A stretch of DNA of 18,822 nucleotides from Ignavibacteriota bacterium (GTDB taxonomy: Bacteria > Bacteroidota > Ignavibacteria > UBA10030 > UBA6906): the NCBI GenBank assembly GCA_963801355.1, contig CAWDEM010000002.1, positions 1 to 18,822 on the forward strand, given 5' to 3'. The position numbers and the translations under genes were made by a program. Below, one piece after another: positions 2,481-18,822 of this stretch (within the stretch, counting starts at the first letter, position 1; each line of letters starts with the position of its first letter). Under the pieces are notes generated by a model. The model was not told where the DNA came from. It did no database searches and saw nothing but the letters and a program-made list of their open reading frames with translations.

Positions 2481-3410
2481 TTACAGTAGCTTGTCAATAA
2501 CCTCATTCTTCAAAAAAGTACTAAACTTTTTTGTGCCTCTGCCATTAAGATGATCGTTGTCCCGAAAATCATCGAATTCGAACCTGCTATCATAGAAGTA
2601 ATTGAAGCATCTGGCTGAATGCTGTTCGGCTATCCTGTTAATTGTATTGGTCATCAGTTCATAGTTACTCTTTGTTATGTGCTCGTAATATGTTTTGTAA
2701 ACTGGAGTTATGACAAAGGCAATTTTGATGTGTCTTTTGTTCAGCATGTCAGCCATTTCATTTAGTGTGCCAATATTGAAATCAAGGAGATCGTCTCTCA
2801 TAAGCCCCTCATGAAGAGCAACCCTTTGCTTCCCATTTCTATCATCAACCCTTTTCTCAATACTTGGTACTTTGTCCGGCAGAGATTGGTGGCCGTATTC
2901 ATTTATGTCCATCTGAGGAATATGGCGCAAGGTGTAGATAACTCCGAGAGGCCCATCCCACAAGAAAAGGGCACTATGCGTCCTTAAGTCGAAAACCGAT
3001 GCAGAAGCATCTGCTTGTACGGCCATATACAACGAATAGTAAGGACATCGCCACGATTCTGAAATTGAAGGGAGATCTGTTTTGAGAGAAAGATAGGAAA
3101 TTGGAAGAATTACCATTTTGACGTTCCTGCATTCGGGCAAATACTTCAACAACACTCTGTAGTCTTGGTATAGACACTGACTGGAATTGGCAAAGTTGAA
3201 AGCTTCTCGTCCAAAGAATTGCGGGTCTATTCCCAGATTCGAATATGATGAACCCATTACCAACACTTCAATTGCGTTCTTCTTCTTTTCGAAATAGTAG
3301 ATCTTGGTGCTATATGTCGTAGGTATCCTGCGTGCAAGTAGTTCGAACACGATTGCCAGTGTGACTACCGGCAAGAGCACCAACACGATTTTGAATATCA
3401 GTTTCGTCAT
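2481..3410 (-). CDS. Membrane-anchored SGNH-like acyltransferase (DltD/AlgJ-like partner of the MBOAT)
   Basis: N-terminal TM anchor, GSS nucleophile motif (VMGSSYS) and C-terminal DxxH motif (FRDNDHLN). Directly downstream of the MBOAT gene. Start is ATG 3410, or TTG 3416 overlapping the MBOAT stop. Confidence 0.75.
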   Translation of the reverse strand: MTKLIFKIVLVLLPVVTLAIVFELLARRIPTTYSTKIYYFEKKKNAIEVLVMGSSYSNLGIDPQFFGREAFNFANSSQCLYQDYRVLLKYLPECRNVKMVILPISYLSLKTDLPSISESWRCPYYSLYMAVQADASASVFDLRTHSALFLWDGPLGVIYTLRHIPQMDINEYGHQSLPDKVPSIEKRVDDRNGKQRVALHEGLMRDDLLDFNIGTLNEMADMLNKRHIKIAFVITPVYKTYYEHITKSNYELMTNTINRIAEQHSARCFNYFYDSRFEFDDFRDNDHLNGRGTKKFSTFLKNEVIDKLL

Positions 3411-3412
3411 GG

Positions 3413-4870
3413 TCAAAACTGAAAATAGATGAAGCTTTTGGGAGCAGAATACTGCGCGAGTAAGAATGTGAGCAAAATGAGAGTACTGTATACAAGATAT
3501 CTACGAGAAGCAGTCAGTCGGTTCAAATCGTTGATGCCGTCCTGTCCAAAGCATTTGGTGGCAAGGAGTACATAAGAAAAAGGTATGATTACAGCCGTAA
3601 GAAGAAGTCCAGAGTTGCCTTGTGACAGCAAAAAATCAGACCAGAGCCCTGTTTGACCACCGAGCATATTCGACAACACATACCCCGCATCTGTGAGGTT
3701 ATTTGCTCTAAACAGCACCCAAGCAAGACTCACGAGATTGAACGTCACGATTATCTGCCATGCTTTCAGGAGTTTGGTTTTTTCAATCCTCATGGCTTTA
3801 TGGAGCTTCTTCTTGTAGGGTCTGTAAAATACTGAGCATGCCAAATACACGCCATGCAGCCCGCCCCAAAGGACGAAACCCCAACTTGCACCATGCCAGA
3901 GTCCTGAAATCAGAAATGCTACAACAAGTGCTATGGCTGTGCCCCCGTTCTTCCAATCGCGCCACTCCATCTGTAGCGGCTTAAAGATGTATCCAAGAAT
4001 CCAGCGGGAAAAGGTAATATGCCATCGTCTCCAGAAATCAACTACTGATGTAGCAAGGTAGGGACTGTTGAAGTTCTGGGTCAGATTGATGTTGAAGAGC
4101 CTCGCACTTCCCAGTGCCATATCTGTATAACCGGAGAAGTCCATGAAAATCTGGAAAGCGTAGGCATAGGTCGCCAGCAATAGAGGCAGACCGGTGAAGG
4201 CGTGGACATTGTTGTAAACGGTATCAACGTATAGACCAAGGCGGTCAGCAATCACTACCTTCTTGAAAAGCCCCCAGGTAAACAACAGCATTCCAAAGCG
4301 CATGTTGTCATAGTTGAACTCATATTTGCACTTGAGCTGTGGGATCAGATCGCCTGCCCGTTCGATTGGACCTTGGAGCAATCTTGGAAAGAAAGCCAGA
4401 TACAAGAAAAAGTAACCGAAATGGCGCTCCGGCTTCCCTGTGTCGAGATAGATGTCAATGAGATATGATATAGCCTGGAAGACATAGTAGGACACTCCAA
4501 TGGCAACGAATGACTTCACCGGCTCAATGTGCGCTTCCAACGAAAGGAGGGCAGAAAGTGCTTGCAGATTCTCCGAAAGAAACTGCAGGTACTTCATGGC
4601 AACCAGCGTCACTATATTGACCGCAATACCACTCCACAACAAGGCACGCTTCGCCTTGGTTGATTCTGCGTGAGCGATCCATATCCCAAACCCGAAGGTC
4701 GTCATCGCCACCTCTGCCAACACCACAAGGAGATATGGTAAGTCCAGGGCAGCATAGAATACTATGCTTGCCGCCAGCAGGACAGCCCAACGTACGCGCT
4801 GACTTACTGAGTAGAACACCAGGTAAACGAGTGGCAGGAACAGAAAGTATTTGAGCGAGTTGAAGGGCAC
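3413..4870 (-). CDS. MBOAT family O-acyltransferase (AlgI/DltB-like)
   Basis: Motifs GVSYYVFQAISY, DFSGYTDMA, NFNSPYLATS..DFWRRWHITFS, SGLWHGA (catalytic His) and C-terminal FIYFQF; multi-TM. Likely start is GTG 4870 (xPFNS is a typical N-terminus); the track gives TTG 4894. Confidence 0.95.
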   Translation of the reverse strand: MPFNSLKYFLFLPLVYLVFYSVSQRVRWAVLLAASIVFYAALDLPYLLVVLAEVAMTTFGFGIWIAHAESTKAKRALLWSGIAVNIVTLVAMKYLQFLSENLQALSALLSLEAHIEPVKSFVAIGVSYYVFQAISYLIDIYLDTGKPERHFGYFFLYLAFFPRLLQGPIERAGDLIPQLKCKYEFNYDNMRFGMLLFTWGLFKKVVIADRLGLYVDTVYNNVHAFTGLPLLLATYAYAFQIFMDFSGYTDMALGSARLFNINLTQNFNSPYLATSVVDFWRRWHITFSRWILGYIFKPLQMEWRDWKNGGTAIALVVAFLISGLWHGASWGFVLWGGLHGVYLACSVFYRPYKKKLHKAMRIEKTKLLKAWQIIVTFNLVSLAWVLFRANNLTDAGYVLSNMLGGQTGLWSDFLLSQGNSGLLLTAVIIPFSYVLLATKCFGQDGINDLNRLTASRRYLVYSTLILLTFLLAQYSAPKSFIYFQF

Positions 4871-4883
4871 GAGTCTGTGCTGT

Positions 4884-5120
4884 TCAGGTGGCAATCCTGG
4901 CGCGGATGCTGTTCAACAGATCCCCAACATTTCTGAATGTCACGAGCTCTTTTTGAGAAAATTCAATATCGAATCTGGATTCGATCGCCACGATCAGATT
5001 GACGTGCGAAAGGGAATCCCATCCATCGATGTCGTTAGCAGTCATGTCAGGCGTAATCTTGATATCCTCGTCTTCAAACACTTCACAAAAAACCTTGTTC
5101 AGTCTTTCCAGCAGTTCCAC
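4884..5120 (-). CDS. Acyl carrier protein (DltC-like, stand-alone)
   Basis: 78 aa, acidic, with phosphopantetheine site GWDSLSHV. GTG start with a GGAGG RBS embedded in the end of the upstream ligase gene. Confidence 0.93.
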   Translation of the reverse strand: MELLERLNKVFCEVFEDEDIKITPDMTANDIDGWDSLSHVNLIVAIESRFDIEFSQKELVTFRNVGDLLNSIRARIAT

Positions 5121-5122
5121 GG

Positions 5123-6745
5123 TTAGTCCTCCAGTGTGGATAAGTCTCCGGCGTCCTGGCCCAGGTAGCGAGCCTTTAATACTCGCCGCATGATCTTGCC
5201 GCTTTGGTTTTTGGGTATGCTGTCAACAATAATGATCTCTTGCGGCGTTGCGATGGATGAGGCTCTGTTGCTGATATGAAGTCTGATTTTCACTTCGAGC
5301 TCCTTGCACCAGGTGAATTGCCTATGGAGTTGGACGAATGCGACCACCTTTTCATACAGCAGTTCATCTGGTGCACCGATCACACCGGATTCAGCAACCT
5401 CTTCGATTTCCAAAAGGGCGCTTTCGACCTCGAAGGGACTAATCAGGTGCCCGGCGGTGTTGATGACATCATCACTACGTCCTTTGAACCAGTAGTGGCC
5501 ATCATCATCTCGAACTGCTGTGTCACCGGTGTAGTAGTACCCTCCCTTGAACTTGGAGTTGTATGCTGATTCGTTGTTGAGGTAGGTGACAAACATGGAA
5601 GGCCAGCCGGTCTTGAGACAGAGGTTGCCTTGCCTGTTGTTGTCAAGCAACGCTCCATCATCGCCGATGATGGCAGGCTCAATGCCGTTCAGCGGTGTCC
5701 CCATTGAACCGGGGCGAATTTCAAGTCCTGGACGGTTGGTGACCATGATGCCGCCGGTTTCAGTCTGAAACCAAGTGTCGTAGATGTCTTTGCCGAGCGT
5801 GGTCCGTGCCCAGGTGATGACTTCGGGGTTGAGTGGTTCACCGACGCTGAATATGTGCCTGAGGGCACTCAGGTCGTAACGCCTGAAAAATGCTGCATCT
5901 TCTCGCATCAGCATGCGGAGTGCCGTCGGGGCTGAATACCAGATAGTAACAGCTTCACCCTGCAAGAGATCAAACCAACGTCTGGCATCATAGCCACCAC
6001 CATAGTGGATCTGAGTAACGCCCAGACTCCAGGGACCGATGATGCCGTATGATGTACCGGTTACCCAGCCTTGGTCTGCCGTACACCAGAAGATGTCTGA
6101 TTCATCGAGATCCAACACTTCACCTGCTGTCCTGCTCAGGTGCAGAATGCTTCGATGGACATGCAGGACACCCTTGGGCTTACCGGTGGAACCGGAAGTG
6201 TAATGAAGTACCGATGGGGTATCGGGCCCGGTCGGCAGTGCAGCAAAATCCTGAGAAGCCTCACGCATGAGTGCTGGATAGCTGAGGGTGTCTGCTGATA
6301 GGTGTTCCGGGATATCGGTAACAAGGATGTATTCCAGGGATGGAATCTGGTCTCGAACCCGTGTGATCTTCCTCAGCAGACTATTCTTTGTGACTATCCC
6401 TCTAGGTTTGGCGTCACTCAGGCGGTCCAGGATGGCGTCATCTCCAAAGTTCGAAAAGAGGGTTCCACAGACGACCTGCAGTTTCAATGCACCCAGGAAG
6501 CTGAAGAACTGTTCGGGTGTTTTAGGCAGGAAGGTGAACAGAGTATCGCCGGCCATGAAGCCGAGCGACTGCAAGGCATCTGCAAACCGGTTTGACTCAC
6601 GGTCAAGATCATTGAAGGTATAGTCGGTCCTCTCCTGATTGGCGGATATCCAGCGGAATGCAACCTTCTCCCCACGTCCCAGTTCACACTGCTGACGGGT
6701 GCAGATGTGGCCGATATTGTACTGGTTGTTCTGTATTGGGTTCAT
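5123..6745 (-). CDS. Acetate/short-chain acyl-CoA (or acyl-ACP) ligase, AcsA-like adenylate-forming enzyme
   Basis: Motifs HYTSGSTGKPKG, DTWFQTETG, YYTGD, GRSDDVI, PFEVES and PKNQSGKIMRR. Start is ATG 6745 or TTG 6769. Confidence 0.93.
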   Translation of the reverse strand: MNPIQNNQYNIGHICTRQQCELGRGEKVAFRWISANQERTDYTFNDLDRESNRFADALQSLGFMAGDTLFTFLPKTPEQFFSFLGALKLQVVCGTLFSNFGDDAILDRLSDAKPRGIVTKNSLLRKITRVRDQIPSLEYILVTDIPEHLSADTLSYPALMREASQDFAALPTGPDTPSVLHYTSGSTGKPKGVLHVHRSILHLSRTAGEVLDLDESDIFWCTADQGWVTGTSYGIIGPWSLGVTQIHYGGGYDARRWFDLLQGEAVTIWYSAPTALRMLMREDAAFFRRYDLSALRHIFSVGEPLNPEVITWARTTLGKDIYDTWFQTETGGIMVTNRPGLEIRPGSMGTPLNGIEPAIIGDDGALLDNNRQGNLCLKTGWPSMFVTYLNNESAYNSKFKGGYYYTGDTAVRDDDGHYWFKGRSDDVINTAGHLISPFEVESALLEIEEVAESGVIGAPDELLYEKVVAFVQLHRQFTWCKELEVKIRLHISNRASSIATPQEIIIVDSIPKNQSGKIMRRVLKARYLGQDAGDLSTLED

Positions 6746-6884
6746 GGCAGCATCGTGTCTTTGGAACAACGACCACCCACCATTGCGTGCGCGAATGCTG
6801 AGGCAGACTTGTCTCTTCTCAGGCCTTCGCTACTTGATGCAGGGATGATGCTTCCGGCACTGAAGGAAACAACGCCGGGAACAT

Positions 6885-7712: not shown

Positions 7713-8387
7713 TCAGGTGTTCCCCACAAGTCCAAGTCTTATGGCGTGCCTCACCAGTCCAGCTGTCTCGTGAATGTCCAATTTTTGCATGATATTTGCC
7801 CGGTGTGTATTGACGGTGCGGAAGCTCAGGAAGAGCTGGTCGGCGATCTGCCGGTTTGTGTACCCGAGTGCAATCAGCTTCAGTACCTCTGTCTCGCGTT
7901 TTGTCAACTGTTGGCCCGGTGCCGACGCGGCTGGTTGTTCAGCCGGCGGTTGTTCCATTGCACGCTTAATGAAGCTCTCCACGATGATATTCGAGATTCC
8001 CGGACTGAAGAACCGCTCACCCGATACTGCTGAATCAATGGCCTTGAAAATATCCCTTTTGCCGGCATTCTTCAGCACATATCCGCTTGCTCCAGCACGA
8101 AGAATCTGATAGGCGTATTCCTCATCTTCATGCACCGTCAGAATCACCACTTTCACGTCTGGGAGACGTTCTTTGATAATCTTCGTGGCCGCAATACCGT
8201 CGAGGTTCGGCATGGAGATATCCATGATCACCACATCCGGCTTTGTCTTCTCGGTCATACGCACGGCTTCTTCACCATCCACTGCCTCCCCCACGATTGA
8301 ATAGTCCGGCGACGTACGCAACAGCGCCCGGAGCCCGCTCCTCACAACATCATGATCATCAGCAATGAGAATCCTGGTTTTGGACAT
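7713..8387 (-). CDS. NarL/FixJ family response regulator (REC + LuxR HTH)
   Basis: Motifs IADDH, DVVIMDISMP (phospho-Asp), VILT, GYVLK; HTH region LTKRETEVLKLIALGYTNRQIADQLFLSFRTVNTHRANIMQKL. Confidence 0.96.
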   Translation of the reverse strand: MSKTRILIADDHDVVRSGLRALLRTSPDYSIVGEAVDGEEAVRMTEKTKPDVVIMDISMPNLDGIAATKIIKERLPDVKVVILTVHEDEEYAYQILRAGASGYVLKNAGKRDIFKAIDSAVSGERFFSPGISNIIVESFIKRAMEQPPAEQPAASAPGQQLTKRETEVLKLIALGYTNRQIADQLFLSFRTVNTHRANIMQKLDIHETAGLVRHAIRLGLVGNT

Positions 8388-8494: not shown

Positions 8495-10288
8495 TCATTC
8501 TTCACTCGCCACGGGAAGCGTCACGGTGATCGTCGTGCCCCGATCAGGCCCGCTGTCGACGGCGAACGATCCGCCCAGCAACTCCGCACGTTCCCGCATG
8601 CCAAGCAATCCAAAGCCATGTCCTTCAGCATGCATGCCGGCCATGTCATTGCGTACAATCCCCTGTCCGTTGTCGTGGATGCACAATTCCAGCGATGCGT
8701 TTTGCCGTGAAAGATGGATTTCCGCCGCTGTGGCATGCGCATGCTTGGCGATATTCGCTAATGCTTCCTGGGAAATGCGGTAGAGGGCAATCTCTGAGTC
8801 ACCAGGGAGATCCGTGGGAATACCCTCGGTACAATGAATACTGGTGGCAATGCCCTGGCGCTTTTCGAAATCTTTCGCCAGGAGCCGGAGTGCCGTCACA
8901 AGGCCGAAGTCATCAAGCACGCTCGGACGGAGGTTCGAAGAGATCCTCCGCACCTCCGCGATTGACCGGTCCAGTTCCTCCCGCACATCCCGCAGCTGCT
9001 TCGCCATCTTGCGGTCACCCGGTGCACCTTCTTCTTCCAATACTTCCACGCGGAACTTCATTCCGCTAAGTCGCTGGCAGAGGTCATCGTGAAGCTCCCG
9101 TGATATGCGGGCCCGCTCTTCTTCCTGTGCCCGCTGCATGGATGACGCAAAACGCCTGAGTCCTGCAATTCGCTCCTGTTCAGCCTTCTCGACCTGCTCG
9201 ACCATCGCGTTGAACCTGTCACCCACAAGCCGCAGTTCGTCCCTTCCGGTCAAATGCACTTTCTGCGACAGGTCTCCTTTTCCAACCTTCTCCATCACCG
9301 ACATCAGGTGTGCCAACGGCTTCGTGATGCTGCGCGTCATCCAGATCCCGGCGAGTGTGCCGAAAATCAGACTGATACCAAGCACTCCAAGAATTGTGTT
9401 GTTCGTGGTACGTCCTGCGACAAGAAGTTCGTCTTTTGTACGAGTCAGGTTGAGCTCCGTCCGCGTCTGTACCCGTTCGTTGAGCGTCGAAGCCAGACCT
9501 CGATACGAATCCATAAACGCATCCAGCTGCGACCGCCGGGCTTTCTCCGAATCAATGAGGGTGCGGGCAAGGCGCAGGCCGTCAGCGGACCGCTGCTGCA
9601 GTTCTGTGGCCGAGCGTTTCTCCTCGGCGGAGAGCAGAACGACCCGGTGGACGCGCAGGAACTCCGAGAACTGCTTCTCGGCGATGCTCAGCTGGTCTGT
9701 GAATTTGCCTTCCCCCGTCAACATATAATCACCCAGACTTTTGGCCAGCGCATTCATCTGCACCTGCATTCCGAGTGCAACCTGGAGCCGGCGGTAGGCG
9801 ATGGGGTCGGTTACACTAATGGAACCGAGAATGCGGTCCGATAGCAGCGCGTCGATAGCCTGGAGCTCATCACGCAGTGCATTCAGATCTCTCACTTGCA
9901 CGTCACGCAGGCGTACCTGCTCAAGCGCCGCATCGTGAAATCTGACAATAGAGTCCTGCAGGTCTGACCTTAGACCAGCGAAACGCGCAAGTGCCGCGAC
10001 GCCCGCTGCATCCTTCCGGCTGCTGTCAAGCCCCTTCGGATCTCGTTCTGGTGCACCGAGCAACCGGTGGTCTCCCGTGGCAGAGTAGGCAAGTGTGGCG
10101 AAGGCCGTTTCGGCGAGGTAGTTTTCGATGGCATAGACTGCAGAGTTGACGGGCTCCCGCACCTGTGTCAACTCTTCAAGTTTGTCGTTTACTGCGCTCG
10201 TTTGGGTAAACGACACCAGGCCGATCAACACACACAGCACAAGGAGCACACCGATGCCCAGCCCGAGTTTCGCTCCGATGTTCAGCAT
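8495..10288 (-). CDS. Sensor histidine kinase, HisKA_3 (NarX/UhpB type) with helical periplasmic sensor and HAMP
   Basis: TM1 LGLGIGVLLVLCVLIGLVSF, TM2 ILGVLGISLIFGTLAGIW, HAMP ITKPL..DELRLVGDRFN, H-box EERARISRELHD, QEALANIAKHA, DNGQG, GFGLLGMRERA. GGAGG lies 9 nt upstream of the ATG. Confidence 0.95.
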   Translation of the reverse strand: MLNIGAKLGLGIGVLLVLCVLIGLVSFTQTSAVNDKLEELTQVREPVNSAVYAIENYLAETAFATLAYSATGDHRLLGAPERDPKGLDSSRKDAAGVAALARFAGLRSDLQDSIVRFHDAALEQVRLRDVQVRDLNALRDELQAIDALLSDRILGSISVTDPIAYRRLQVALGMQVQMNALAKSLGDYMLTGEGKFTDQLSIAEKQFSEFLRVHRVVLLSAEEKRSATELQQRSADGLRLARTLIDSEKARRSQLDAFMDSYRGLASTLNERVQTRTELNLTRTKDELLVAGRTTNNTILGVLGISLIFGTLAGIWMTRSITKPLAHLMSVMEKVGKGDLSQKVHLTGRDELRLVGDRFNAMVEQVEKAEQERIAGLRRFASSMQRAQEEERARISRELHDDLCQRLSGMKFRVEVLEEEGAPGDRKMAKQLRDVREELDRSIAEVRRISSNLRPSVLDDFGLVTALRLLAKDFEKRQGIATSIHCTEGIPTDLPGDSEIALYRISQEALANIAKHAHATAAEIHLSRQNASLELCIHDNGQGIVRNDMAGMHAEGHGFGLLGMRERAELLGGSFAVDSGPDRGTTITVTLPVASEE

Positions 10289-10427: not shown

Positions 10428-10703
10428 ATGAACACCGCCACGCACGCTGCAACCGCAGCGGTCGCCCAGGCCATCAAAGCCTCGGGCGCCATCGTGAAGA
10501 TTTCCCCTGAAGGCTTCAAGGCATTGCTCCAGCGGGCGAAAGAACCCCTGGTCATAGTCTCTCAGGGCGGCCTGATTTCGAAGAAGTTTGAGTATCTGAT
10601 GGGGTACAAAGGACTTGTTTTCTTCACGAGCTCGAAGGAACAGTTTGGTTTTACATCAGGAGTGGAGCTCGTCACCGCCGAGAAGATCTGGATACCGGGC
10701 TGA
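10428..10703 (+). CDS. Small hypothetical protein (91 aa)
   Basis: GGAGG at 10417-10421 then ATG 10428. Protein-like sequence AAVAQAIKASGAIV...YLMGYKGLVFFT...KIWIPG. The track start at 10146 overlaps the kinase on the opposite strand. Confidence 0.8.
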   Translation: MNTATHAATAAVAQAIKASGAIVKISPEGFKALLQRAKEPLVIVSQGGLISKKFEYLMGYKGLVFFTSSKEQFGFTSGVELVTAEKIWIPG

Positions 10704-10755
10704 GGACGATTCGTTATTGTGTTATCTGACACCTGAACTCGGGATCTCCCCGGCT

Positions 10756-11406
10756 ATGCAAGAAAATTCATCGTCCGTGAAGCCTATTCCTCTCATCGCT
10801 CCTGAGCCCATCGATCCTGTGGCCCGGTACGTTCCTCTCATCCTGCGCCTGTTGCTCTATGTTTTCCTGACCTGGTTCCTGATCGAGGCCATCCCGATCT
10901 TCTATTCGTATGATCCGAACGAAGCCTGGCCGCGTCTCGTCTGGATATTCCGCACATTTACATTCCTGCCTCTCCATGAGGGAGGGCACGTTCTCTTCAT
11001 GTTCTTCGGCAAGACACTCCATGCGCTGGGTGGATCATTCTGGCAGATCATGTTCCCGCTCCTATGGTTCATCATTGCGTTGAAGCAGCGGTCGCAGGTC
11101 GCCCCCTTCCCTCTTTTCTGGGTGGGAGAAAATATGATGGACGTGAGTCTCTATATCCGTGACTCACAGGACATGATACTGCCGCTGCTCGGCGGGCACA
11201 AATCTGGGCACGACTGGCATTTTCTGTTGACGAGGTGGGACCTCATTGATTCCTGTCAGGAGGTGGCGGATGTCATCTATTTCGCGGGGGTAATTATCTC
11301 TATTGTGGGAATTGTCGGCGGGATTATCTGGGCGTCTGTGGCGTTCTATCGATCAGGAAAACCTGCGGAGCCGGTATCCATACTTCACAAACGGAAGAGC
11401 GATTGA
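10756..11406 (+). CDS. Integral membrane protein with HExxH motif (M50-like Zn metalloprotease fold)
   Basis: 4-5 hydrophobic segments, LHEGGH near a TM, and a downstream GHDW motif. Start ATG 10756 is inferred. Confidence 0.75.
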   Translation: MQENSSSVKPIPLIAPEPIDPVARYVPLILRLLLYVFLTWFLIEAIPIFYSYDPNEAWPRLVWIFRTFTFLPLHEGGHVLFMFFGKTLHALGGSFWQIMFPLLWFIIALKQRSQVAPFPLFWVGENMMDVSLYIRDSQDMILPLLGGHKSGHDWHFLLTRWDLIDSCQEVADVIYFAGVIISIVGIVGGIIWASVAFYRSGKPAEPVSILHKRKSD

Positions 11407-11433: not shown

Positions 11434-14202
11434 TCAACCGTTTTCTCCAGCAAGCCTGGCAATCTGCAGCAGATAGAACCGCAACCGGTCCTGTTGCACC
11501 GGATTCAGCGCCTGTTCCTCGATCGATGCGATCCGTTCCACTTCCTTCATTGCCCGTATGATCGTTGCAGGCACCTCCATCTGACCTTCCGCTGCGATGT
11601 TCAGATATTCCACTGCAGCAGCAAGGAACTGCCGCATCTCATCATCGCCACGCGTGACTCGGAAATACGACGTAAGCGCCGAAGGCAAACGCACATCGCG
11701 CGACGCCAACTGGAAATCACGCGGTTGCAGTTTCGACGAAATCGAATAGAGCGCCACGGCCAGCTCAACAAACGATTCAACACGCTGGAAGACCGGATGC
11801 TCAAGCAATGCCCACGCACGCGAACGCCAGAACCGGATCTCCTCCGGAATCCTGAGCAATCCCCCTACATCCTTCAACCAGGCCTGCTCAATCGACCCGT
11901 CAATCATCTCCTGCAATCGCTGCAGGTTCGTGTTGAACAGATCCGGCTGTAGTAACACCGCCAGGTCCGGGCGAAGTGTGGGAAGCAAAGCAGGTTTGAA
12001 GCCGGCCGGTTCGAAAAAGTCACCCACATCGATACCATGTCTGCGCAGCAACTCCTGCTGGAACAGAGGAATGTACTTCGCCATTGCATCCACGTCTTCG
12101 CGCAGCGCAATGAGGGCTGAGTTTCCTGCTGGGAAGGCCCGTTCGAGTGTCTCCAGGTGTTCAACGCCATGATAAAGCCGTAGTGTTTGAAGGATTTCGT
12201 AAACTGGCAGATGCGGAAAAATCCGATCCGCCAAAAACGTCTCCGGATCTCCCTCCACCGATTCCCGGTGTGCAAAGGCATCCAACGCACGGAAGAGTCC
12301 GACAGTCAGTTGGTTGATTCCTAGAACCGCCGTCTGCGCTTGATTGTGTGCGATTGCGCGCAGCAGACTCCCGTACCGCGCGAAGGGAATGGTCTCCGCA
12401 ATCCGCTCGAGTATGCGGTTGCCCTCCTCTTTGACCGAGTGTCCGGGGCGCACTGTTGGCCTGTCACGAAGCGGCGGGGTTGTCCGCGCAATGAAGTACG
12501 AGATAACATGCAGGCCCACCACATCTTCCTCGCGACCGTAGAGAATCTGCCGGAAGTTCTCAGTCAGTACTTCCAGAAATCCATCCAGCGCCTTGCTCTG
12601 TGCGCCAACGGTGAGCCGTTCAAGCGTTTGTTCTCCGCGTCTTGTACTCTTGAAGCGGCTCTGTGCAAACTCCTCGCAGGCCCGGACAAGGTCACCGCGG
12701 TGTTTCTCTTGCTGTTTTGCAATGTGATGCAGCAGTTGAGTTAGATCGTGTACAGGAATGTGCCTGACCCGCTCGGCTATTGCACTCTGGAAGGTTCGCA
12801 GGTCTCCGCCCGAAAAGACACCCTGCATCGGCGTAGTTGCATAAAGCGTGCTCCTTCGCGTCGAAGCCCGCAGTCCCATGGCAAACCGCCGTGACGAGTT
12901 TTCGGATTGTATAAACGCCGGCGTGCCGCTCACCTCACCGTAGTAGCCTCCCTGCCGCTGCATAGGTTCGCCGCTTCCCATCTTCAGCCGCACGTGATCG
13001 GCAAGGCCCCGTTCCCCAAGCCAGTGCATCAGCTCGAACTTTGCCTGCCGGTACATCCGCGCGGCGGGTGTCTGACCCACATTCTGACTCAGATCGGAAC
13101 CTGCAATAAACACCTCGGCAATCATCTCTCCAAAACGGTCACGGGTTTCCTGGTTCAGCCTCCTGCTCTGAAGCGCATGCTCCCACAGTTTATTCAGATA
13201 TCCCGTCAGGCCCCGCACCGCCTCCACGTCTTCAAAAAGCGGGATCAGCCAGACTGAAGGGAGAACGAGATCCGGGTGGTCGCGAAGCGCATGTTCGCGC
13301 CGCGCATGGAACTTCCGATCCAGAGCAATCAGGGCCTCCGGCCGCGACGACATGCTTACCTGGAATCCCAATACGAGTCCCGGATTGCCATATTCTGCTC
13401 CGATCTCGTTGATCTCGGTGATATTGAACACCGTGGTATCAATGGCAAACTGGTCCTGTGCTGTCACCATGTTCTGCTGAATGCGCGGCGTAATCACAAT
13501 GCGTTGGAGAAGATCGCGATAGAGAACCGCCTCACGGAGCAGCGCCGGATCACCGATATTGCGCTGCAGTGCAGGAATCAGTCCGTGCAACTCCTTGCGG
13601 AGCCGTTTGTTGAGACTTCCGTAGGACTCAAGTGCCTCACGCCGTTTCCGGCGCAGCTCCAGCATCCGCCGTTCCAACCTGTCATTGTGATGCCAGAGCG
13701 TGGTAACCGGATCGCTTGCTACGTGAAGCGACATGCCAATGCGCCGCAGGCGTCCCGCTTGAGCATAGAACGGCAGAATTCCGCGGTACCGCCGTTCGAG
13801 CTGGTGCGTCAGCCCGGTGATTTCATTGAGCAGGTGAACAAAATGGCGCGACTTTGCCTGCAGCTGCTCCATCTCGACCTGCAATTCCGGCGAAATCCGC
13901 ACTGTCCCGTCCCGTTCCATAAGCATCCTGAGCAGCCGCGACATCCGCTGGACATTTTGCATCAGCACAGACCCGACAAGGTTGTGCCCCTGTCCGGAGG
14001 GACGGTTGCTCCCGTCCCAGTCTCCCCAGAACGAGAGAAACGTCGGCGGCAATCCCGCACCTTCGATCTCTCCGCAGAGCTCTGCGGCGATGTGAGCGTC
14101 GAGATCAATGATGACCTCCTCGGCTTCTCCGCTTGACGTAATCGCGACATTGAGCCCGAGGAATTCATTTACGAGGTCGCGGGCTACCCTGGAGAGCTGC
14201 AT
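11434..14202 (-). CDS. Divergent phosphoenolpyruvate-carboxylase-like protein, C-terminal part (probably the frameshifted continuation of the upstream ORF)
   Basis: PEPC-like motifs in the canonical order: SFWGDWDGSNRP, WLIPLFED, FIAGSD, GSGEPMQRQGG, TFQSA, SLLRAIA, and C-terminal IARLAGENG. Confidence 0.72.
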   Translation of the reverse strand: MQLSRVARDLVNEFLGLNVAITSSGEAEEVIIDLDAHIAAELCGEIEGAGLPPTFLSFWGDWDGSNRPSGQGHNLVGSVLMQNVQRMSRLLRMLMERDGTVRISPELQVEMEQLQAKSRHFVHLLNEITGLTHQLERRYRGILPFYAQAGRLRRIGMSLHVASDPVTTLWHHNDRLERRMLELRRKRREALESYGSLNKRLRKELHGLIPALQRNIGDPALLREAVLYRDLLQRIVITPRIQQNMVTAQDQFAIDTTVFNITEINEIGAEYGNPGLVLGFQVSMSSRPEALIALDRKFHARREHALRDHPDLVLPSVWLIPLFEDVEAVRGLTGYLNKLWEHALQSRRLNQETRDRFGEMIAEVFIAGSDLSQNVGQTPAARMYRQAKFELMHWLGERGLADHVRLKMGSGEPMQRQGGYYGEVSGTPAFIQSENSSRRFAMGLRASTRRSTLYATTPMQGVFSGGDLRTFQSAIAERVRHIPVHDLTQLLHHIAKQQEKHRGDLVRACEEFAQSRFKSTRRGEQTLERLTVGAQSKALDGFLEVLTENFRQILYGREEDVVGLHVISYFIARTTPPLRDRPTVRPGHSVKEEGNRILERIAETIPFARYGSLLRAIAHNQAQTAVLGINQLTVGLFRALDAFAHRESVEGDPETFLADRIFPHLPVYEILQTLRLYHGVEHLETLERAFPAGNSALIALREDVDAMAKYIPLFQQELLRRHGIDVGDFFEPAGFKPALLPTLRPDLAVLLQPDLFNTNLQRLQEMIDGSIEQAWLKDVGGLLRIPEEIRFWRSRAWALLEHPVFQRVESFVELAVALYSISSKLQPRDFQLASRDVRLPSALTSYFRVTRGDDEMRQFLAAAVEYLNIAAEGQMEVPATIIRAMKEVERIASIEEQALNPVQQDRLRFYLLQIARLAGENG

Positions 14203-17032
14203 CGTGCGATGCCTCCCTGCCGCGAATCATCTCGTGCAGTATCGCATCAAAGGAAGCTTCAGTCCGGATGGAGTACATCTGCGTCGGATGCACCGTACGA
14301 TCGAACAACCGGTGTGTGAATGCCTCCTCCCGGCGCTTCAAGGAATCCTTGTAGAATTCCTTCTCCAGGCTGCGCGCAAGTGTCTTTCCATTGTCATTCC
14401 GCGCCAGCGCGCAATACTCTTCGGCAAGGGATAGGCGGTCCATGTACCGTTGACGGAACACCGCGATACGTGCAGGTAAGAATTCCTTCAGCAACAGTTG
14501 CCGCGCGTGCTCTTCGTGCAGGTCTTCCTGAAGCGGCGTGCGTATCGACGAAGCTTCTTTCTCAACCAGCCCGGTAACTATGTCTTCCAATGTCTTCCAC
14601 GCATATGATGCGTGATCCGCAGGAGCCTTTGTACGTACGGAGGTGTAGGAAGTGCGCCTGTACTGCGCCGACTCTTCGGCGATGATACGATTGAGATCAA
14701 TGAGCACACGTCGCGTTTTGTTCTGCAGAACCGTCGCCGGGTCCGTGCCGCCGAGTGTCAGACGGAATGCTTTTCTGCCGGTGTCAAAGCCCTTCTCGGT
14801 TCTCGCAAATGTCGAAAGCGGAACCATTCCGATCCCCTGTCGTGCAAGCCCCGAACCGACCCAATCAAGCGACAGGCCTGCAGGAAGTTTGTCGATGATC
14901 ATCAGGGGATACATGCTTCCTGTGGGGGGCTCGATGTGAATCCCGAACGGATTTCTGTCGGCGGGAAGGTTGCGCAGAGCCGAGGTCAATGCCTCCATCC
15001 GTTCATACAGGAGAGTATTCCTCAGCCTCCAGTATGCGCGCGTCGTCTCCAGGGAATTGCGATAGAAGAGATACGAGAGAAGAATCGCCCCCGTGTTCGG
15101 TCTTATTGAAGAAAGAATCGCGCAGAAGCGCTCACGAAGGGCTGCATCCCTGATCTCAACAACCGAGAGCCTTGCACCGGCCATGCAATCGGTTTTGGAC
15201 ATCGAATGCACCGTTACAAGCCGGCTTGCCTGTCGTGAAGTCAGGCCGCCCGTCGCTACCTGTTCATCCGCAATCTGACGCAATGTCGGGATTTCCGGTA
15301 GATCCGTCAACGGCGCTACGTTCTGGTAGGAAAGATCGTCAATCACGGTGATCTCCTTCCCCAGCAACTTCTGCAAGAGCTCCTTGACGGTGGCAATCTT
15401 GAAGACCCTTCCGGTGGCGTTGTGCGGGTTGTTCAGGACCACTGCACCATGGTTGCTCCATGTTGCATCGCCGCGCAGGCGCTCCTCCACTGCATTCACA
15501 ATACCATCCCCGTCCAGATCCAGGTCCGCCGTGAGAGGTACAGCGTACGTCGCCGGGAAGCAATGCTCGTATGTCCAGCTCAGATCCGGCATCACCACAT
15601 CTGTGATTCCGCAATGGAAGCCCAGCAGACTCAACGCCGTTCGTGCTGAGCCGCTCACAACAATACAGCTGCGCTGATCATACTCCGGGTGGTGCCGGAC
15701 AAAGGCAGCAATCAACGACTGCTCCAGATCGGTATGCCACTGCGGATCATTAACGTTAGCCGCCAGGGTGTTCACAAGTTCCCGCGGGTCATAATGCAGG
15801 AAGTGATCGAATGGCAGGTCCGGCATGTGTGCCGGAACACTTTCCAGAATGCGGTTGACCCGTGCATCGATTCCTGCCAGTGCAACGCTGAGCCGTTGTT
15901 CGTGTACGGCAAGCAGTGACTCGACTCTCCTTCCAATCTGTCCGCTTGCCTGCAGAAGCGCTTGCTCGCCGCCTGTGTTAAATCCCGGGGCTTCAAGCGG
16001 CGGCTCAACGGTGAGCGGAGCATAATCTGGCTCTGCGACTCCATGTGGTGTATGATGCTCCAGCAGATACGTGAGCAGTTCCACTTCCGACGCAGACGGG
16101 GTCCCTTTCAGTTGAAAATGCAGAGTCTCGAGCAGTTGGAGGTACTCGGCATTTCCGGCGACGAAGATAGTCGAGAGGGCGGCCAGCCGGGGGGAAAAAA
16201 TGCCCGGCGTAAGAAACCGGATCACGCGGTCAATCAGTCGGGCCTCACGGCCGAGAGAGAGGTGATTGGGCGCATCATTCACTTCGACAAAGAAGATAGG
16301 CGACGCGAGGCTGAGCTGACGGAGTGAGCGGCGCGTTTCCTCGTTCGTGATCGCACCAAGGACAAGGAACAGCGGCCGGGATGGCGCTTCTGTTGTCGTT
16401 GCACGCACACGGCTGAGCGCACCATGTTCATCATCCGGAAGTGTCTCGAACTCCAGGCCGTTGAAAGACTTTATGTGCGGTGGGAGATCAACACGAAACA
16501 GCAGGATTTTTGCAGGCAATGTCGCAAGGAATGCCGAGAGCGCATGGAAGAATACACGGAGCGTTTCGATGCGTCCCCCGGACGCGAGTATGATTTCGCG
16601 GTGCTCCGAGGCCTTGCCGGTGTCATACACGAGAGGCTCCTGTTGTTGCTGGAGCCAGTTGCTGAATGCGAGTACCAGCGAGGGCGGTGTTGCACGCGCA
16701 AAACCACCGCGGGGAAGATATGGTGCGCTTTTGCGGACCAGGTTTACAAACAGATCGAACAGAGGACGGTCCGTATCGGGCCAGTCCAACGCCTGCATCA
16801 TTTTCTCAGGGAATTCATCTGTAAGCTCCTCATCACGTATGGCAAGTCCGGTGATCGCCCTGAGGTATGCCGAAGAGAGACGTGTTTCCTGAACGGGGTT
16901 ACCGATGTGGAAATTCACACGGTCTTCGGGCGCGACGGCCGCGGCAGCTGTGGTCTCGCTGATCTCGGAGACCTTCGCAGCCCTTGTGGGCTTGAGTCGA
17001 AAAACGGTATTGAGGGCAGAAGTGGTCGTCAT
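14165..17032 (-). CDS. Class I/II PLP-dependent aminotransferase (double domain) fused to the start of a PEPC-like domain
   Basis: Motifs LNNPHNATG, VIDDLSY, HSMSKTDCMAGARLS (PLP Lys at 15194-15196), GSMY and AFRL. C-terminal RTVHPTQ resembles PEPC TAHPTE. Start ATG 17032 was chosen because ATG 17149 overlaps the SPFH gene. Confidence 0.85.
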   Translation of the reverse strand: MTTTSALNTVFRLKPTRAAKVSEISETTAAAAVAPEDRVNFHIGNPVQETRLSSAYLRAITGLAIRDEELTDEFPEKMMQALDWPDTDRPLFDLFVNLVRKSAPYLPRGGFARATPPSLVLAFSNWLQQQQEPLVYDTGKASEHREIILASGGRIETLRVFFHALSAFLATLPAKILLFRVDLPPHIKSFNGLEFETLPDDEHGALSRVRATTTEAPSRPLFLVLGAITNEETRRSLRQLSLASPIFFVEVNDAPNHLSLGREARLIDRVIRFLTPGIFSPRLAALSTIFVAGNAEYLQLLETLHFQLKGTPSASEVELLTYLLEHHTPHGVAEPDYAPLTVEPPLEAPGFNTGGEQALLQASGQIGRRVESLLAVHEQRLSVALAGIDARVNRILESVPAHMPDLPFDHFLHYDPRELVNTLAANVNDPQWHTDLEQSLIAAFVRHHPEYDQRSCIVVSGSARTALSLLGFHCGITDVVMPDLSWTYEHCFPATYAVPLTADLDLDGDGIVNAVEERLRGDATWSNHGAVVLNNPHNATGRVFKIATVKELLQKLLGKEITVIDDLSYQNVAPLTDLPEIPTLRQIADEQVATGGLTSRQASRLVTVHSMSKTDCMAGARLSVVEIRDAALRERFCAILSSIRPNTGAILLSYLFYRNSLETTRAYWRLRNTLLYERMEALTSALRNLPADRNPFGIHIEPPTGSMYPLMIIDKLPAGLSLDWVGSGLARQGIGMVPLSTFARTEKGFDTGRKAFRLTLGGTDPATVLQNKTRRVLIDLNRIIAEESAQYRRTSYTSVRTKAPADHASYAWKTLEDIVTGLVEKEASSIRTPLQEDLHEEHARQLLLKEFLPARIAVFRQRYMDRLSLAEEYCALARNDNGKTLARSLEKEFYKDSLKRREEAFTHRLFDRTVHPTQMYSIRTEASFDAILHEMIRGREASHDAALQGSPRPRK

Positions 17033-17045
17033 GAGCCCCGAGAGA

Positions 17046-17087
17046 TTCAACTTTGAGTTCTGAACTGAGAACTCAGAGTTTGGAATT
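17046..17087 (-). repeat. Six degenerate tandem heptamers containing an inverted repeat
   Basis: Minus strand AATTCCA AACTCTG AGTTCTC AGTTCAG AACTCAA AGTTGAA. Inverted repeat TGAGTTCT (17054-17061) / AGAACTCA (17068-17075). Confidence 0.55.
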
Positions 17088-18041
17088 CTTTTTTTGATAC
17101 GCCGCGATAGCCCCCTGCACGAACGTATGGAACATCGCCAGTAGATCATTTCCTTGCACTGTTTCCCCAGGAGAAAGCGACACCACCGTGCGTGCGTTCT
17201 TCAGAGACTGGCTTGCCTCTGCGAGGCGTGCCGCCTGGGGTGTGAGCAGCAGAAGTTCGGGACTCTCCTTCAGCAATCGCATTTCTTCCTTTTCAAACTC
17301 AAGCTGTTTCTTCTTCAGCGCAAGTTCATGTGTTGTCCGTGTTTCGGCCAACATGGCGTCTTGTTCAAGTTCAGACTTCTTGAGATCGTAACGTTTCAAA
17401 GCGAGTTCATGTTCGAGGAGTGCAACCTCTTCGTCCGCCTTCACACGCGCCCTGGCTTCGGTGATGCGGGCTTGCTGGTTCAACGTTTCTGTCTGCTCGA
17501 GAATCCTTGCATGCTCGCGTTGACGCATTGCTTCGGCAATCTGTGTGTTCACCGGCTCAAATGAAGTGATAGCAAGATTTACGATCTCGAGACCGAGCGC
17601 GTTATTGATGTCTTTGAACCGTTGCTGGAGATGCACACGGAGCCCGTCCGAAGATAATTCTTCGATCCCTCTCGCTTCCGTATATTCTTTTGCGTATCCC
17701 AGGAGGAGTGTTTCAAGTTCCTTGCCGGCTCTCGCGACCGAGCCGGCTGTCCAGCCGCCGGCGCGTACGAGGGAGGCGAGGTGGCTCATCGATGCTGCGA
17801 CGGTCACGGCGATCTTGAAGCGCACATCCAGGTTTCCTTTCGCGGATCCCTCGATGGTTTGCGTGAACGAGTGTGCGGTGCGTGTAATGGGAGTGCTGAA
17901 ATGCCGGGGGTAGAAGCGCCCCTTGCGGATGCCGACGCCGTCGTGTGTTTCATACACCACGATTTGATCGGGTTTGCGGAACCGGTACTCGAAGAGCACT
18001 GCCGCTATGATAAGCGCGCCAATGATCAGGGCGAATTCCAT
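17073..18041 (-). CDS. SPFH/band-7 (flotillin-like) membrane protein
   Basis: AGGAGG RBS at 18050-18055, N-terminal TM, FRKPDQIVVY, band-7-like LGLEIVNLAITSF, long E/A/R/K-rich coiled coil. Confidence 0.75.
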   Translation of the reverse strand: MEFALIIGALIIAAVLFEYRFRKPDQIVVYETHDGVGIRKGRFYPRHFSTPITRTAHSFTQTIEGSAKGNLDVRFKIAVTVAASMSHLASLVRAGGWTAGSVARAGKELETLLLGYAKEYTEARGIEELSSDGLRVHLQQRFKDINNALGLEIVNLAITSFEPVNTQIAEAMRQREHARILEQTETLNQQARITEARARVKADEEVALLEHELALKRYDLKKSELEQDAMLAETRTTHELALKKKQLEFEKEEMRLLKESPELLLLTPQAARLAEASQSLKNARTVVSLSPGETVQGNDLLAMFHTFVQGAIAAYQKKNSKL

Positions 18042-18097: not shown

Positions 18098-18215
18098 GTC
18101 CTCGCGAGGAGCGCTCTCAGCGACGAAGCGACCTCGCTGTCCTTGCGAGTGGCGCCTCGTCGCCGCGAAGCAACCTCACCGTCCTCGCGAGGCCCGAAGG
18201 GCCGCAGTGACCTCG
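18098..18215 (+). repeat. REP-like palindromic repeat cluster 3 (3 tandem units)
   Basis: Units at 18098-18136, 18139-18178 and 18181-18215 share GTCCTYGCGAG...CGMAGYRACCTC with variable inner hairpins. Confidence 0.88.
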
Positions 18216-18822
18216 TCGTTGAAGATCCCATCAAACATCGGCCTTGTGAGCTTTCCCGTGAACGTGTTTTGCTGACTCGGGTGGTATGAGGCAATGAACG
18301 TCAGATCGCCGAAAACGTACATGGCGCCGTGGGCAAACCGGGGCATGGAGGAAATGGCGATCCGGCCGGCGTCACGGTAGGCTCTGATCGCCGCCTCGAA
18401 TCCGACTTTCCCCAAGCCGACGACAACCTTGACGTTCTTCAGAAGGGCAAGTTCCTGGAGAAGGAAATGACGGCACGACGAGATTTCGGCCGCGGTGGGT
18501 TTGTTCTGGGGAGGAGCACAGCGGAGTGTTGCGGTGATGTAGCAACCCTTCAGCCGGAGTCCGTCTTCGCGGTGCACGGACTCCGGCTGATTGGCAAAAC
18601 CTGCATGGTGGAGGGCACGGAAGAGCCAATTGCCGCTCTCGTCGCCGGTAAACATCCGACCGGTGCGGTTTCCCCCGTGGGCTGCAGGAGCCAGGCCCAC
18701 GAGAAGCAACCACGCGTCGGGATCGCCGAAGCCGTTGAGCGGCTTCCCCCAGTACTCCTCGCGGGCAAAGCGGCGCACCTTCTCTGCTGCGGTCGACTCG
18801 CGCCATGCAACGAGCCGGGGGC
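18176..18822 (-). CDS. udgB: Uracil-DNA glycosylase family 5 (UdgB-like), 5' end outside the window
   Basis: The frame is open to the window edge (PRLVAWRE). Motifs GLAPAAHGGNRTGRMFTGDESG, RCAPPQNKP and SYHPSQQNT. Confidence 0.92.
   Translation of the reverse strand, partial: PRLVAWRESTAAEKVRRFAREEYWGKPLNGFGDPDAWLLLVGLAPAAHGGNRTGRMFTGDESGNWLFRALHHAGFANQPESVHREDGLRLKGCYITATLRCAPPQNKPTAAEISSCRHFLLQELALLKNVKVVVGLGKVGFEAAIRAYRDAGRIAISSMPRFAHGAMYVFGDLTFIASYHPSQQNTFTGKLTRPMFDGIFNDEVTAALRASRGR

Follow-up and report, generated by a model that had tools for sequence, protein, structure and literature searches.

What might a protein do that appears to join an aminotransferase to a phosphoenolpyruvate (PEP) carboxylase in one chain? 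The question is raised by a giant gene on the minus strand of contig CAWDEM010000002.1 from an Ignavibacteriota bacterium (assembly GCA_963801355.1), for which an earlier sequence-only reading had proposed a one-protein route from PEP and bicarbonate to aspartate. The stretch analysed here, referred to as the window, is the whole source contig (C2, 18,822 nt), one of eight contigs of a 4.8-Mb genome. Taken jointly, the findings are best explained by a frameshifted copy of a conserved giant gene that encodes a degenerate aminotransferase-like domain, a pyridoxal phosphate (PLP) aminotransferase and a divergent homologue of PEP carboxylase (PEPC), an account that as a whole stands a little short of an even chance. 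The architecture and homology within it, that is aminotransferase parts followed by a PEPC-homologous domain, are close to certain. The gene, its open reading frames (ORFs) and its domains are laid out as follows.

11434..17032, minus strand: the interrupted giant gene, 5,599 nt or 1,866 codons plus 1 base; its counterparts in relatives are single ORFs of ~1,866-1,872 aa
14165..17149, minus strand: upstream ORF1 as called, 994 aa
14165..17032, minus strand: the upstream frame from the conserved Met, covering the two aminotransferase-fold domains and ~150 residues at the start of the PEPC-like domain
11434..14202, minus strand: downstream ORF2, 922 aa, with the rest of the PEPC-like domain
14202, minus strand: the extra base, an A in CACG[A]TGCAG, source of the frameshift
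16013..17032, minus strand: residues 1-340, an N-terminal aminotransferase segment and a putative degenerate aminotransferase-like alpha/beta domain without the PLP lysine
14663..15787, minus strand: residues ~416-790, the catalytic class I/II PLP aminotransferase domain
11437..14662, minus strand: residues ~791-1866, the PEPC-homologous TIM-barrel domain of ~1,080 aa, inside which the frameshift falls

The fold of the C-terminal domain carries most of the argument. It was modelled with AlphaFold from residues 790-1865 of an intact homologue (L011, 94% identical), using a 41-sequence alignment of the C-terminal family with members at 35-80% identity. The model has a pLDDT of 85.1 and a pTM of 0.87, with low pLDDT in the loop after strand 7 and in the stretch 742-749 just past RDRPTVRP. 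In a Foldseek search of the PDB, PEPCs occupy 24 of the 24 rows shown (ranks 1-48; best E=1.2e-11), and 66 matches fall at E<=1e-3. A second look with VIA gave Z=20.0 for the archaeal-type PEPC 3odm_D (rmsd 3.5 A, 486/526 residues aligned, 15% identity) and Z=16.7-19.9 for the plant and E. coli enzymes, with 536-663 residues aligned to the last residue (model 1075/1076) of both model and chains. The next families, comprising CLYBL, malyl-CoA lyase, pyruvate kinase and malate synthase, reach at most Z=13.7 over ~220-260 residues of the barrel alone. In a scan of 48,161 representative chains that did not depend on Foldseek, two PEPC representatives again came out on top (Z=17.9; 3odm_A 16.6), followed by generic TIM barrels at 13.4 or less. 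The predicted structure contains the eight-stranded barrel, the large helical superstructure and the buried C-terminal Gly of PEPC. Because the fold searches put PEPC first, the earlier expectation that this region would model as a PEPC barrel is borne out by the predicted fold and topology. The ESM features of ORF2 also lie nearest to PEPcase clusters (0.86), which is a lead only. Judged from these models, the C-terminal ~1,080 aa are, with good support, a very divergent PEPC homologue, and the domain is a third lineage beside the Pfam families PEPcase and PEPcase_2.

At the level of motifs, the PEPC-like domain reads as listed below, with the form conserved in the family and the PEPC counterpart in brackets where the two were paired.

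14279-14296, minus strand: TVHPTQ (family DRTVHPTQ, PEPC TAHPTE)
13999-14031, minus strand: FWGDWDGSNRP (family FWGDWDGSxRP, PEPC SWIGxDRDGxP)
13474-13491, minus strand: TPRIQQ
13348-13362, minus strand: QVSMS (family QVSMS, PEPC IISM)
13228-13245, minus strand: IPLFED (family IPLFED, PEPC VPLFET)
13093-13110, minus strand: FIAGSD (family FIAGSDLSQ, PEPC MLGYSDSxKD)
12946-12978, minus strand: GSGEPMQRQGG (family KLGSGEPMQRQGG, PEPC FHGRGGxxGRGGG)
12784-12801, minus strand: LRTFQS
12445-12468, minus strand: RDRPTVRP (family RDRPTVRP, PEPC SRPxxR)
12349-12363, minus strand: LRAIA (family LRAIxHN..Q, PEPC LRAIPW..Q)
11437-11448, minus strand: GENG, at the C-terminal end

All of the motifs named in the sequence-only reading, here and in the aminotransferase half, were located in the window in the order it gave. 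When the family was aligned by hhalign with 28 canonical PEPCs, translated from loci found by PF00311, the result was collinear over 749 columns (17-907 vs 33-919) with P=9.8e-4; as controls, a reversed PEPC profile reached P=0.052 and the family's own N-terminal half P=0.25. The paired family motifs are also invariant or nearly so across the 41 members, down to 35% identity, and together with the controls this takes the motif resemblance beyond chance. Active-site residues of TIM barrels are expected at the C-terminal ends of the barrel strands, and in the AlphaFold model the motifs lie at or just after predicted strands 121-124, 210-215, 433-437, 472-477, 517-521 and 559-563. By our own reading of the model, TPRIHQ follows strand 389-396 and LRTFQS lies at strand 622-625.

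The residues on which PEPC chemistry depends can be followed through the same alignment. We take His138 of the E. coli enzyme to be the His of TAHPTE, and His579 and Arg587 to lie in FHGRGGxxGRGG; the Glu of PLFET and the Asp of GYSDS are presumably the metal ligands, as in the E. coli structure, and the Arg of RP..R and LRAI the phosphate ligands. Active-site roles in PEPC are likewise presumed for Glu506, Asp543, Arg396, Arg699, Arg713 and the mobile loops. By alignment, the family keeps the catalytic His, both metal ligands, three Arg and the C-terminal Gly. The His of DRTVHPTQ, aligned to that of TAHPTE, is invariant in the 41 sequences, and so are the Glu of PLFE and the Asp of AGSD, both aligned to their PEPC equivalents. 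The equivalent of Arg587, the second Arg of the loop, is invariant, and the Arg of RP..R and LRAI are kept. All 41 members end in Gly after Asn or Ser, and the 28 PEPCs end in (N/S)TG. For E. coli PEPC, His138, His579 and Arg587 are described as important for catalysis (PMC11832675).

The aminotransferase half (residues ~1-790) is more readily recognised, and its motifs are distributed over two segments.

16895-16915, minus strand: NFHIGNP, in the N-terminal segment
16703-16723, minus strand: PYLPRGG, in the N-terminal segment
15410-15433, minus strand: NNPHNATG, in the catalytic aminotransferase domain
15326-15340, minus strand: DDLSY, in the catalytic aminotransferase domain
15170-15205, minus strand: SMSKTDCMAGAR (SMSK..AGAR) with Lys613, in the catalytic aminotransferase domain
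14747-14767, minus strand: FRLTLGG, in the catalytic aminotransferase domain

PF00155 matches residues 464-803 of ORF1 at E=1.6e-14 (54.3 bits, cut-off 19.7 bits). A profile of the family matched solved aminotransferases in the PDB (3b46 at E=5e-10), with NNPHNATG, DDLSY and SLSK..AGAR aligned to the cofactor motifs of 3b46 and 3ezs. N538, D566, Y569, K613, R621 and R757 are invariant among the 38 sequences in which the N-terminal half was counted, and they include the Schiff-base Lys (K613), D566/Y569, N538 and the phosphate-binding R621 of a PLP site. An AlphaFold model of window residues 1-820 (pLDDT 88.6) was compared by VIA with class I aminotransferases and gave Z=28-30, the best being LysN 2egy_C (Z=30.2, rmsd 3.1, 379/396 aligned). 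The intact class I/II PLP site that had been claimed for this half is therefore upheld by the Pfam match, the invariant residues and the fold. Since the LysN alignment spans model residues 5..787 and the Pfam-positive domain just 416-787, N-terminal residues must also be used in it. H42, I43, G44, P46, Y105, G109 and G110 are invariant in that N-terminal segment. Residues ~130-310 form a seven-strand alpha/beta domain in the model, which aligns weakly and collinearly with the catalytic domain (hhalign P=0.0056) and has no lysine at the Schiff-base position. Its ESM features are nearest to PF00155 clusters (0.94, 25/30 matches; again a lead only), and it is read as a degenerate aminotransferase-like domain. 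This domain had gone unnoticed in the sequence-only reading, as had the conserved SPFH gene next door and the existence of a second, unbroken copy of the locus. In the model, this domain may pair with the active one as an intramolecular pseudo-dimer, or may be an insertion; in a pseudo-dimer the invariant HIGNP and PY.PRGG would serve the single active site.

How widespread is such a protein? A word-indexed search of the long-protein class returned 704 proteins at E<=1e-3 among 7,998 scored, so that the search for full-length homologues suggested earlier has been amply answered. The 120 long relatives listed are 1,765-1,900 aa in length and align with the whole of ORF2 at 57-94% identity; their sole precomputed Pfam domain is PF00155 and their names are aminotransferase or hypothetical, as had been predicted of automated pipelines. 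A phmmer search with ORF2 against 1.84 billion representatives gave 196 clusters (50% identity) at E<=1e-3, and the 150 clusters listed are family members (1,691-1,947 aa) or fragments. The source labels of the listed long relatives are Ignavibacteria, Melioribacteraceae, Bacteroidota and one Acidobacteria; those of mid-length relatives also include Calditrichota, along with a few from Chloroflexota and archaea that may reflect errors in binning. The giant gene is carried by 11 of 31 close relatives and by 10 of 151 genomes in a phylum-wide sample, all of the latter in families labelled as the same family, order or class. Among the genomes sampled, it is confined to the window's own Bacteroidota class.

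The window's copy is interrupted, and whether the interruption is real is a question apart from that of function. Comparison with relatives places the homologues' start at the Met at 17032, and the span 17032..11434 of 5,599 nt given in the sequence-only reading is exact for that reason. ORF1 and ORF2 lie in different frames with a 38-nt overlap, the upstream frame stopping at TGA 14165-14167, 12 codons beyond the frameshift. In BLASTP against intact relatives, the ORF1 match ends at about residue 982-983 and the ORF2 match begins at residue 2, with no gap between. The window is a separate version, 88-96% identical, of a locus in the same assembly (C8:3011987-3025578 plus C3:3-4062), and that sister copy, made up of the C8 end and the C3 start, reads through in one frame. 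The extra base at 14202 is missing from the sister copy at the C8 end in the alignment, and also from the contigs of relatives in two public runs (X2, X3), whose uncovered parts of the window are uninformative. Both halves of the gene share one frame in 13 of 13 other loci examined, which agrees with the earlier claim of a single gene product. Between window ORF2 and the sister copy dN/dS is 0.065, which leaves an error of assembly or a mutation of very recent date as the source of the break.

A real frameshift, marking a recently inactivated duplicate, a strain variant or a split into two polypeptides, has nearly as good a chance as its alternative, an assembly indel. The extra base lies outside any homopolymer, the contig is a distinct version of the locus, in the other copy of which the frame runs open through this position, and the insertion itself generates the ATG of ORF2 (14202-14200) at the junction, with AGGGAGG 9 nt upstream. 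Interrupted copies in other genomes and truncated relatives speak for it as well: at least 19 of the 120 mid-length relatives listed are C-terminal-only ORFs on contigs >50 kb. Set against these points, a dN/dS of 0.065 indicates no relaxed selection, and the break points vary (ORF lengths of 607-1,325 aa), as sporadic sequencing errors in a 5.6-kb gene would give; the varied lengths therefore fit sporadic indels and not a conserved split. No public run held at least half of the words of 13700-14700 (best share 0.13), leaving the source reads of the window without a match there, and no RNA run is listed as holding words of that interval. The other interrupted copies, broken by frame changes or TGA, are in G003:C308, G004:C7:16434-19197 and G017:C108:27980-30656; for these and the C-terminal-only copies, long-read indel errors or recurrent decay of the 5.6-kb gene could be the explanation.

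With the architecture in hand, a mechanism can be proposed for the intact protein. The PEPC-like barrel would bind PEP and a divalent metal through the kept Glu, Asp and Arg. The kept catalytic His and loop Arg would then allow the enolate to be carboxylated with bicarbonate to oxaloacetate, and the fused aminotransferase would convert this unstable product to L-aspartate, glutamate for instance serving as the amino donor. From its conserved residues, the barrel is probably a catalytic, PEP-using domain. The exact route from PEP and bicarbonate through oxaloacetate to aspartate is put forward tentatively, its chances being somewhat below even. The fullest version would have a third, unrecognised PEPC class fused to an aminotransferase pseudo-dimer and making aspartate without freeing oxaloacetate, on a membrane scaffold of the SPFH type and in Ignavibacteria-type bacteria without ppc; as a whole, it would be on the unlikely side.

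A number of results weigh against an aspartate-forming carboxylase. PF00311 has no match on ORF1 or ORF2 at E<=1, the PF14010 model matches neither of them, and Pfam, NCBIfam and a phmmer search of ORF2 against the PDB returned nothing significant for the C-terminal part. In the search of the PDB with the family profile, the sole enzyme other than aminotransferases was 3odm, over the PLFE region and at a sub-significant E=0.39, and a six-sequence C-terminal profile retrieved only a globin (E=0.83). The hhalign probability for the family against PEPC is only 21.8%. Of the family-model comparison that had been suggested for the joined protein, the Aminotran_1_2 (PF00155) and Foldseek parts gave significant matches, and the PF00311 and PF14010 parts gave none. 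The active site differs as well. Only the second Arg and the flanking Gly of the glycine-rich loop correspond in KLGSGEPMQRQGG, and in the hhalign alignment the His of FHGRGG (the His579 equivalent) is replaced by Leu and the first Arg by Ser. The Lys of SDSxKD is replaced by Gln (SDLSQQ), and TEQGE by (R)TxQS, which is RTFQS in the window. Because residues invariant in PEPC are replaced, the bicarbonate chemistry may differ. On the aminotransferase side, the best NCBIfam matches reach 16-26 bits against cut-offs of 290-650 and are spread over DapC, CobD, PatB and AspAT types, and the structural matches to LysN, ACC synthase, AspAT and KAT are tied within 1 Z, so that the substrate is not readable. 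The window's own copy is frameshifted. Finally, the source genome encodes an ATP-dependent PEP carboxykinase and for that reason needs no PEPC.

The distribution of canonical PEPC gives the proposed function no help either. The source genome has no PF00311, PF14010 or PYC_OADA match, and canonical PEPC is scarce throughout the order, occurring in one of the 31 close relatives, a genome that does not carry the giant gene. It occurs in 94 of the 151 genomes of the phylum sample and in 9 of the 36 genomes of families f1-f18, the window's own genome excluded; within these families, 1 of 9 carriers has it, compared with 8 of 27 non-carriers, which for genomes so related amounts at most to a weak trend. 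Whether carrier genomes lack ppc had been suggested as a check. Since ppc is missing from carriers and non-carriers alike, its absence is no argument for the function, and complementarity between the two genes was rejected as uninformative. The carrier that has both, G148, is the only such genome among the 10 carriers of the 151-genome sample, and in it the giant gene and a canonical PF00311 PEPC are about 100 kb apart on one contig, the pair of loci being G148:C6:478717-481425 and 583086-586274. All 18 PF14010 matches among the 151 genomes fall within PF00311 genes as cross-matches, which left no archaeal-type sequences for profile comparison.

The residues that replace those of PEPC are themselves invariant within the family. 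This suggests a site that has been remodelled and not decayed, consistent with the low dN/dS, and it leads to the first alternative for function, namely that the barrel acts on PEP or a similar phospho-enol or 2-oxo acid in a non-carboxylating reaction. In such a case, a bicarbonate-independent or abortive hydrolysis of PEP would give pyruvate, from which the aminotransferase would make alanine, or the enolate would attack another electrophile, and the aminotransferase would act on whatever other 2-oxo acid resulted. This chemistry would be compatible with the retained metal ligands, His and several Arg, and with the replacement of the glycine-rich loop, the SDSxKD Lys and TEQGE by the family-invariant KLGSGEPMQRQGG, SDLSQQ and RTFQS; the next-best structural matches also belong to the PEP/pyruvate TIM-barrel superfamily (malyl-CoA lyase, CLYBL, pyruvate kinase, malate synthase). 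Two points tell the other way. The kept His corresponds to a PEPC residue that is said to be essential for the carboxylation partial reaction, going by the title of a 1991 study by Terada and Izui as listed in PMC11832675, and the similarity over the whole chain, the buried C-terminal Gly included, is specific to PEPC. A non-carboxylating barrel is rated unlikely.

Less probable again is a PEPC-like domain that does no catalysis. Such a domain would serve as a sensor or scaffold that binds PEP, aspartate or malate and regulates the aminotransferase, or docks the SPFH protein encoded next door, and the giant protein would be functionally just an aminotransferase. Curated models do recognise the aminotransferase part only, the SPFH gene is a constant partner (12 of 12 loci), and PEPCs are described as binding aspartate and malate as effectors or competitively (PMC8100219, PMC3586729). 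The invariance of the His, Glu, Asp, Arg and terminal Gly across 41 sequences down to 35% identity and the dN/dS of 0.065 argue against it, and a pure binding domain is not expected to keep metal ligands together with a general-base His. That the PEPC-like motifs arose by chance in an unrelated helical or TIM-barrel protein has a very small probability: the failure of sequence-only searches and the hhalign probability of just 21.8% are met by three structural searches in which PEPC leads by 3-6 Z units, over end-to-end alignments of 486-663 residues, and by a collinear motif alignment that scores above its controls, and an unrelated C-terminal fold was rejected because the fold searches contradict it. 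Carboxylation of PEP with subsequent transamination of oxaloacetate to aspartate is the likeliest of these mechanisms, if somewhat below an even chance, and the C-terminal domain is filed as a fused PEPC homologue that the family models do not recognise and whose glycine-rich loop differs.

Around the giant gene, the window contains the following genes.

17073..18041, minus strand: SPFH/Band-7-like partner gene, 322 aa, hydrophobic at the N-terminus, with a coiled-coil tail; 40 nt separate its stop from the start of the giant gene
18176-18778, minus strand: uracil-DNA glycosylase superfamily gene (PF03167, E=1.6e-27), upstream of the SPFH gene
10615-11406, plus strand: convergent 263-aa ORF, ending 28 nt from the giant gene stop
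8495-10288: HAMP/HisKA_3 histidine kinase, downstream of the giant gene
7713-8387: LuxR-type response regulator, downstream of the giant gene
5123-6769, minus strand: AMP-binding ligase
4884-5120, minus strand: carrier protein, 78 aa, with a GWDSL motif
3413-4894, minus strand: MBOAT
2481-3416, minus strand: DltD-like protein
14-1216: another histidine kinase, downstream of the giant gene

The SPFH gene is the only neighbour conserved beyond the genus. In every one of the 12 loci with upstream sequence it immediately precedes the giant gene on the same strand, at 45-95% identity. Nine of 11 orthologues match PF01145 at E<=0.1 (best E=2.3e-8). The window's member stays below the cut-off (18.1 of 23.6 bits), and a profile search of the PDB turned up no SPFH structure. 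By position, the SPFH gene and the giant gene look like a co-transcribed two-gene operon, and we hypothesize that the enzyme is physically associated with an SPFH membrane scaffold. A promoter-like TTGCGA-17-TATAAT (10/12) stands just upstream of the SPFH start (18095-18067, minus strand) and would be consistent with a single transcript of the two genes; the region has such matches at the frequency expected by chance, with 3 found against 3.6 expected. At L012 7690-10017 (plus strand, G018), the frame of the SPFH homologue continues for 775 aa into the giant gene in another frame, which may reflect a lost stop or a sequencing error.

The remaining neighbours are less constant. The two-component genes stay beside the giant gene only within the genus, and the C8 version of the locus carries tandem duplicates of both histidine-kinase genes. 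The 263-aa ORF has no Pfam or PADLOC match, and its sole relative among the compared loci is in the same-genus L011. A defence-system reading was rejected, PADLOC giving 0 matches for ORF1, ORF2, the SPFH gene and the 263-aa neighbour, and Rfam detected no RNA family in the window. The four genes from the DltD-like protein to the ligase (2481-6769, minus strand) form a dlt-like cluster that is not in the C8 version and has a G+C of 0.41-0.50 against ~0.56; it resembles an inserted island for O-acylation or D-alanylation. The window contig itself represents one of two things, a strain variant that was binned with the genome or a large duplication.

What follows from the analysis depends on the chemistry. 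In any case, a widespread protein, with more than 700 database sequences and 196 clusters at 50% identity, now has ~1,080 residues that go unannotated. If the protein is an active carboxylase, it would give a textbook CO2-fixing enzyme a third, deep-branching lineage and offer a natural coupling of carboxylase and transaminase that avoids free oxaloacetate. Metabolic reconstructions of Ignavibacteria-type metagenome-assembled genomes, now scored as lacking PEPC, would change with it. If the chemistry differs, the remodelled yet invariant site would point to a new PEP-dependent reaction.

The protein can be set beside what has been described before. No description of a PEPC-aminotransferase fusion or of this giant-protein family was found in the full-text literature searched, including that on the central metabolism of Ignavibacterium and Melioribacter, in keeping with the earlier statement that no such fusion had been characterised. 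The available portion of a 2020 review of the PEP-pyruvate-oxaloacetate node distinguishes four PEPC types, namely archaeal-type, bacterial, plant bacterial-type and plant-type, without mention of a fused form, and reports that aspartate inhibits the archaeal-type enzyme competitively with PEP (PMC8100219). Pyc, Mae and Pck are named in the genome paper of Melioribacter roseus, the available part of which mentions no aminotransferase.

Bacterial and plant PEPCs (PF00311; 1jqn from E. coli, 3zge from Flaveria, 5vyj from maize) resemble the C-terminal domain in whole-chain fold, from near the domain N-terminus to the last residue, in size (~880-970 aa, ~1,080 aa here) and in the collinear series HPT, W..D..P, SM, PLFE, G.SD, G.G...R.GG, RP..R, LRAI and C-terminal Gly. 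They differ from it in that identity is 11-16% with no PF00311 match, in that FHGRGGxxGRGG, SDSxKD and TEQGE are here KLGSGEPMQRQGG, SDLSQQ and RTFQS, and in that the domain is fused behind ~790 residues of aminotransferase-fold domains. Archaeal-type PEPC (PF14010; 3odm from Clostridium perfringens) is the best single structural match (Z=20.0), whereas the domain described here has no PF14010 match, is twice as long and is fused. The class I/II aminotransferases (PF00155; LysN 2egy, AspAT 1bjw/2gb3, KAT 3b46, ACC synthase 1iax) share with the N-terminal half the fold (Z=28-30), a Pfam score above the cut-off and the PLP-site Asn, Asp, Tyr, Lys and Arg together with the carboxylate Arg motif, all invariant here. 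Unlike them, the giant protein places an extra degenerate aminotransferase-like domain of ~300 residues, with no lysine, ahead of the catalytic one.

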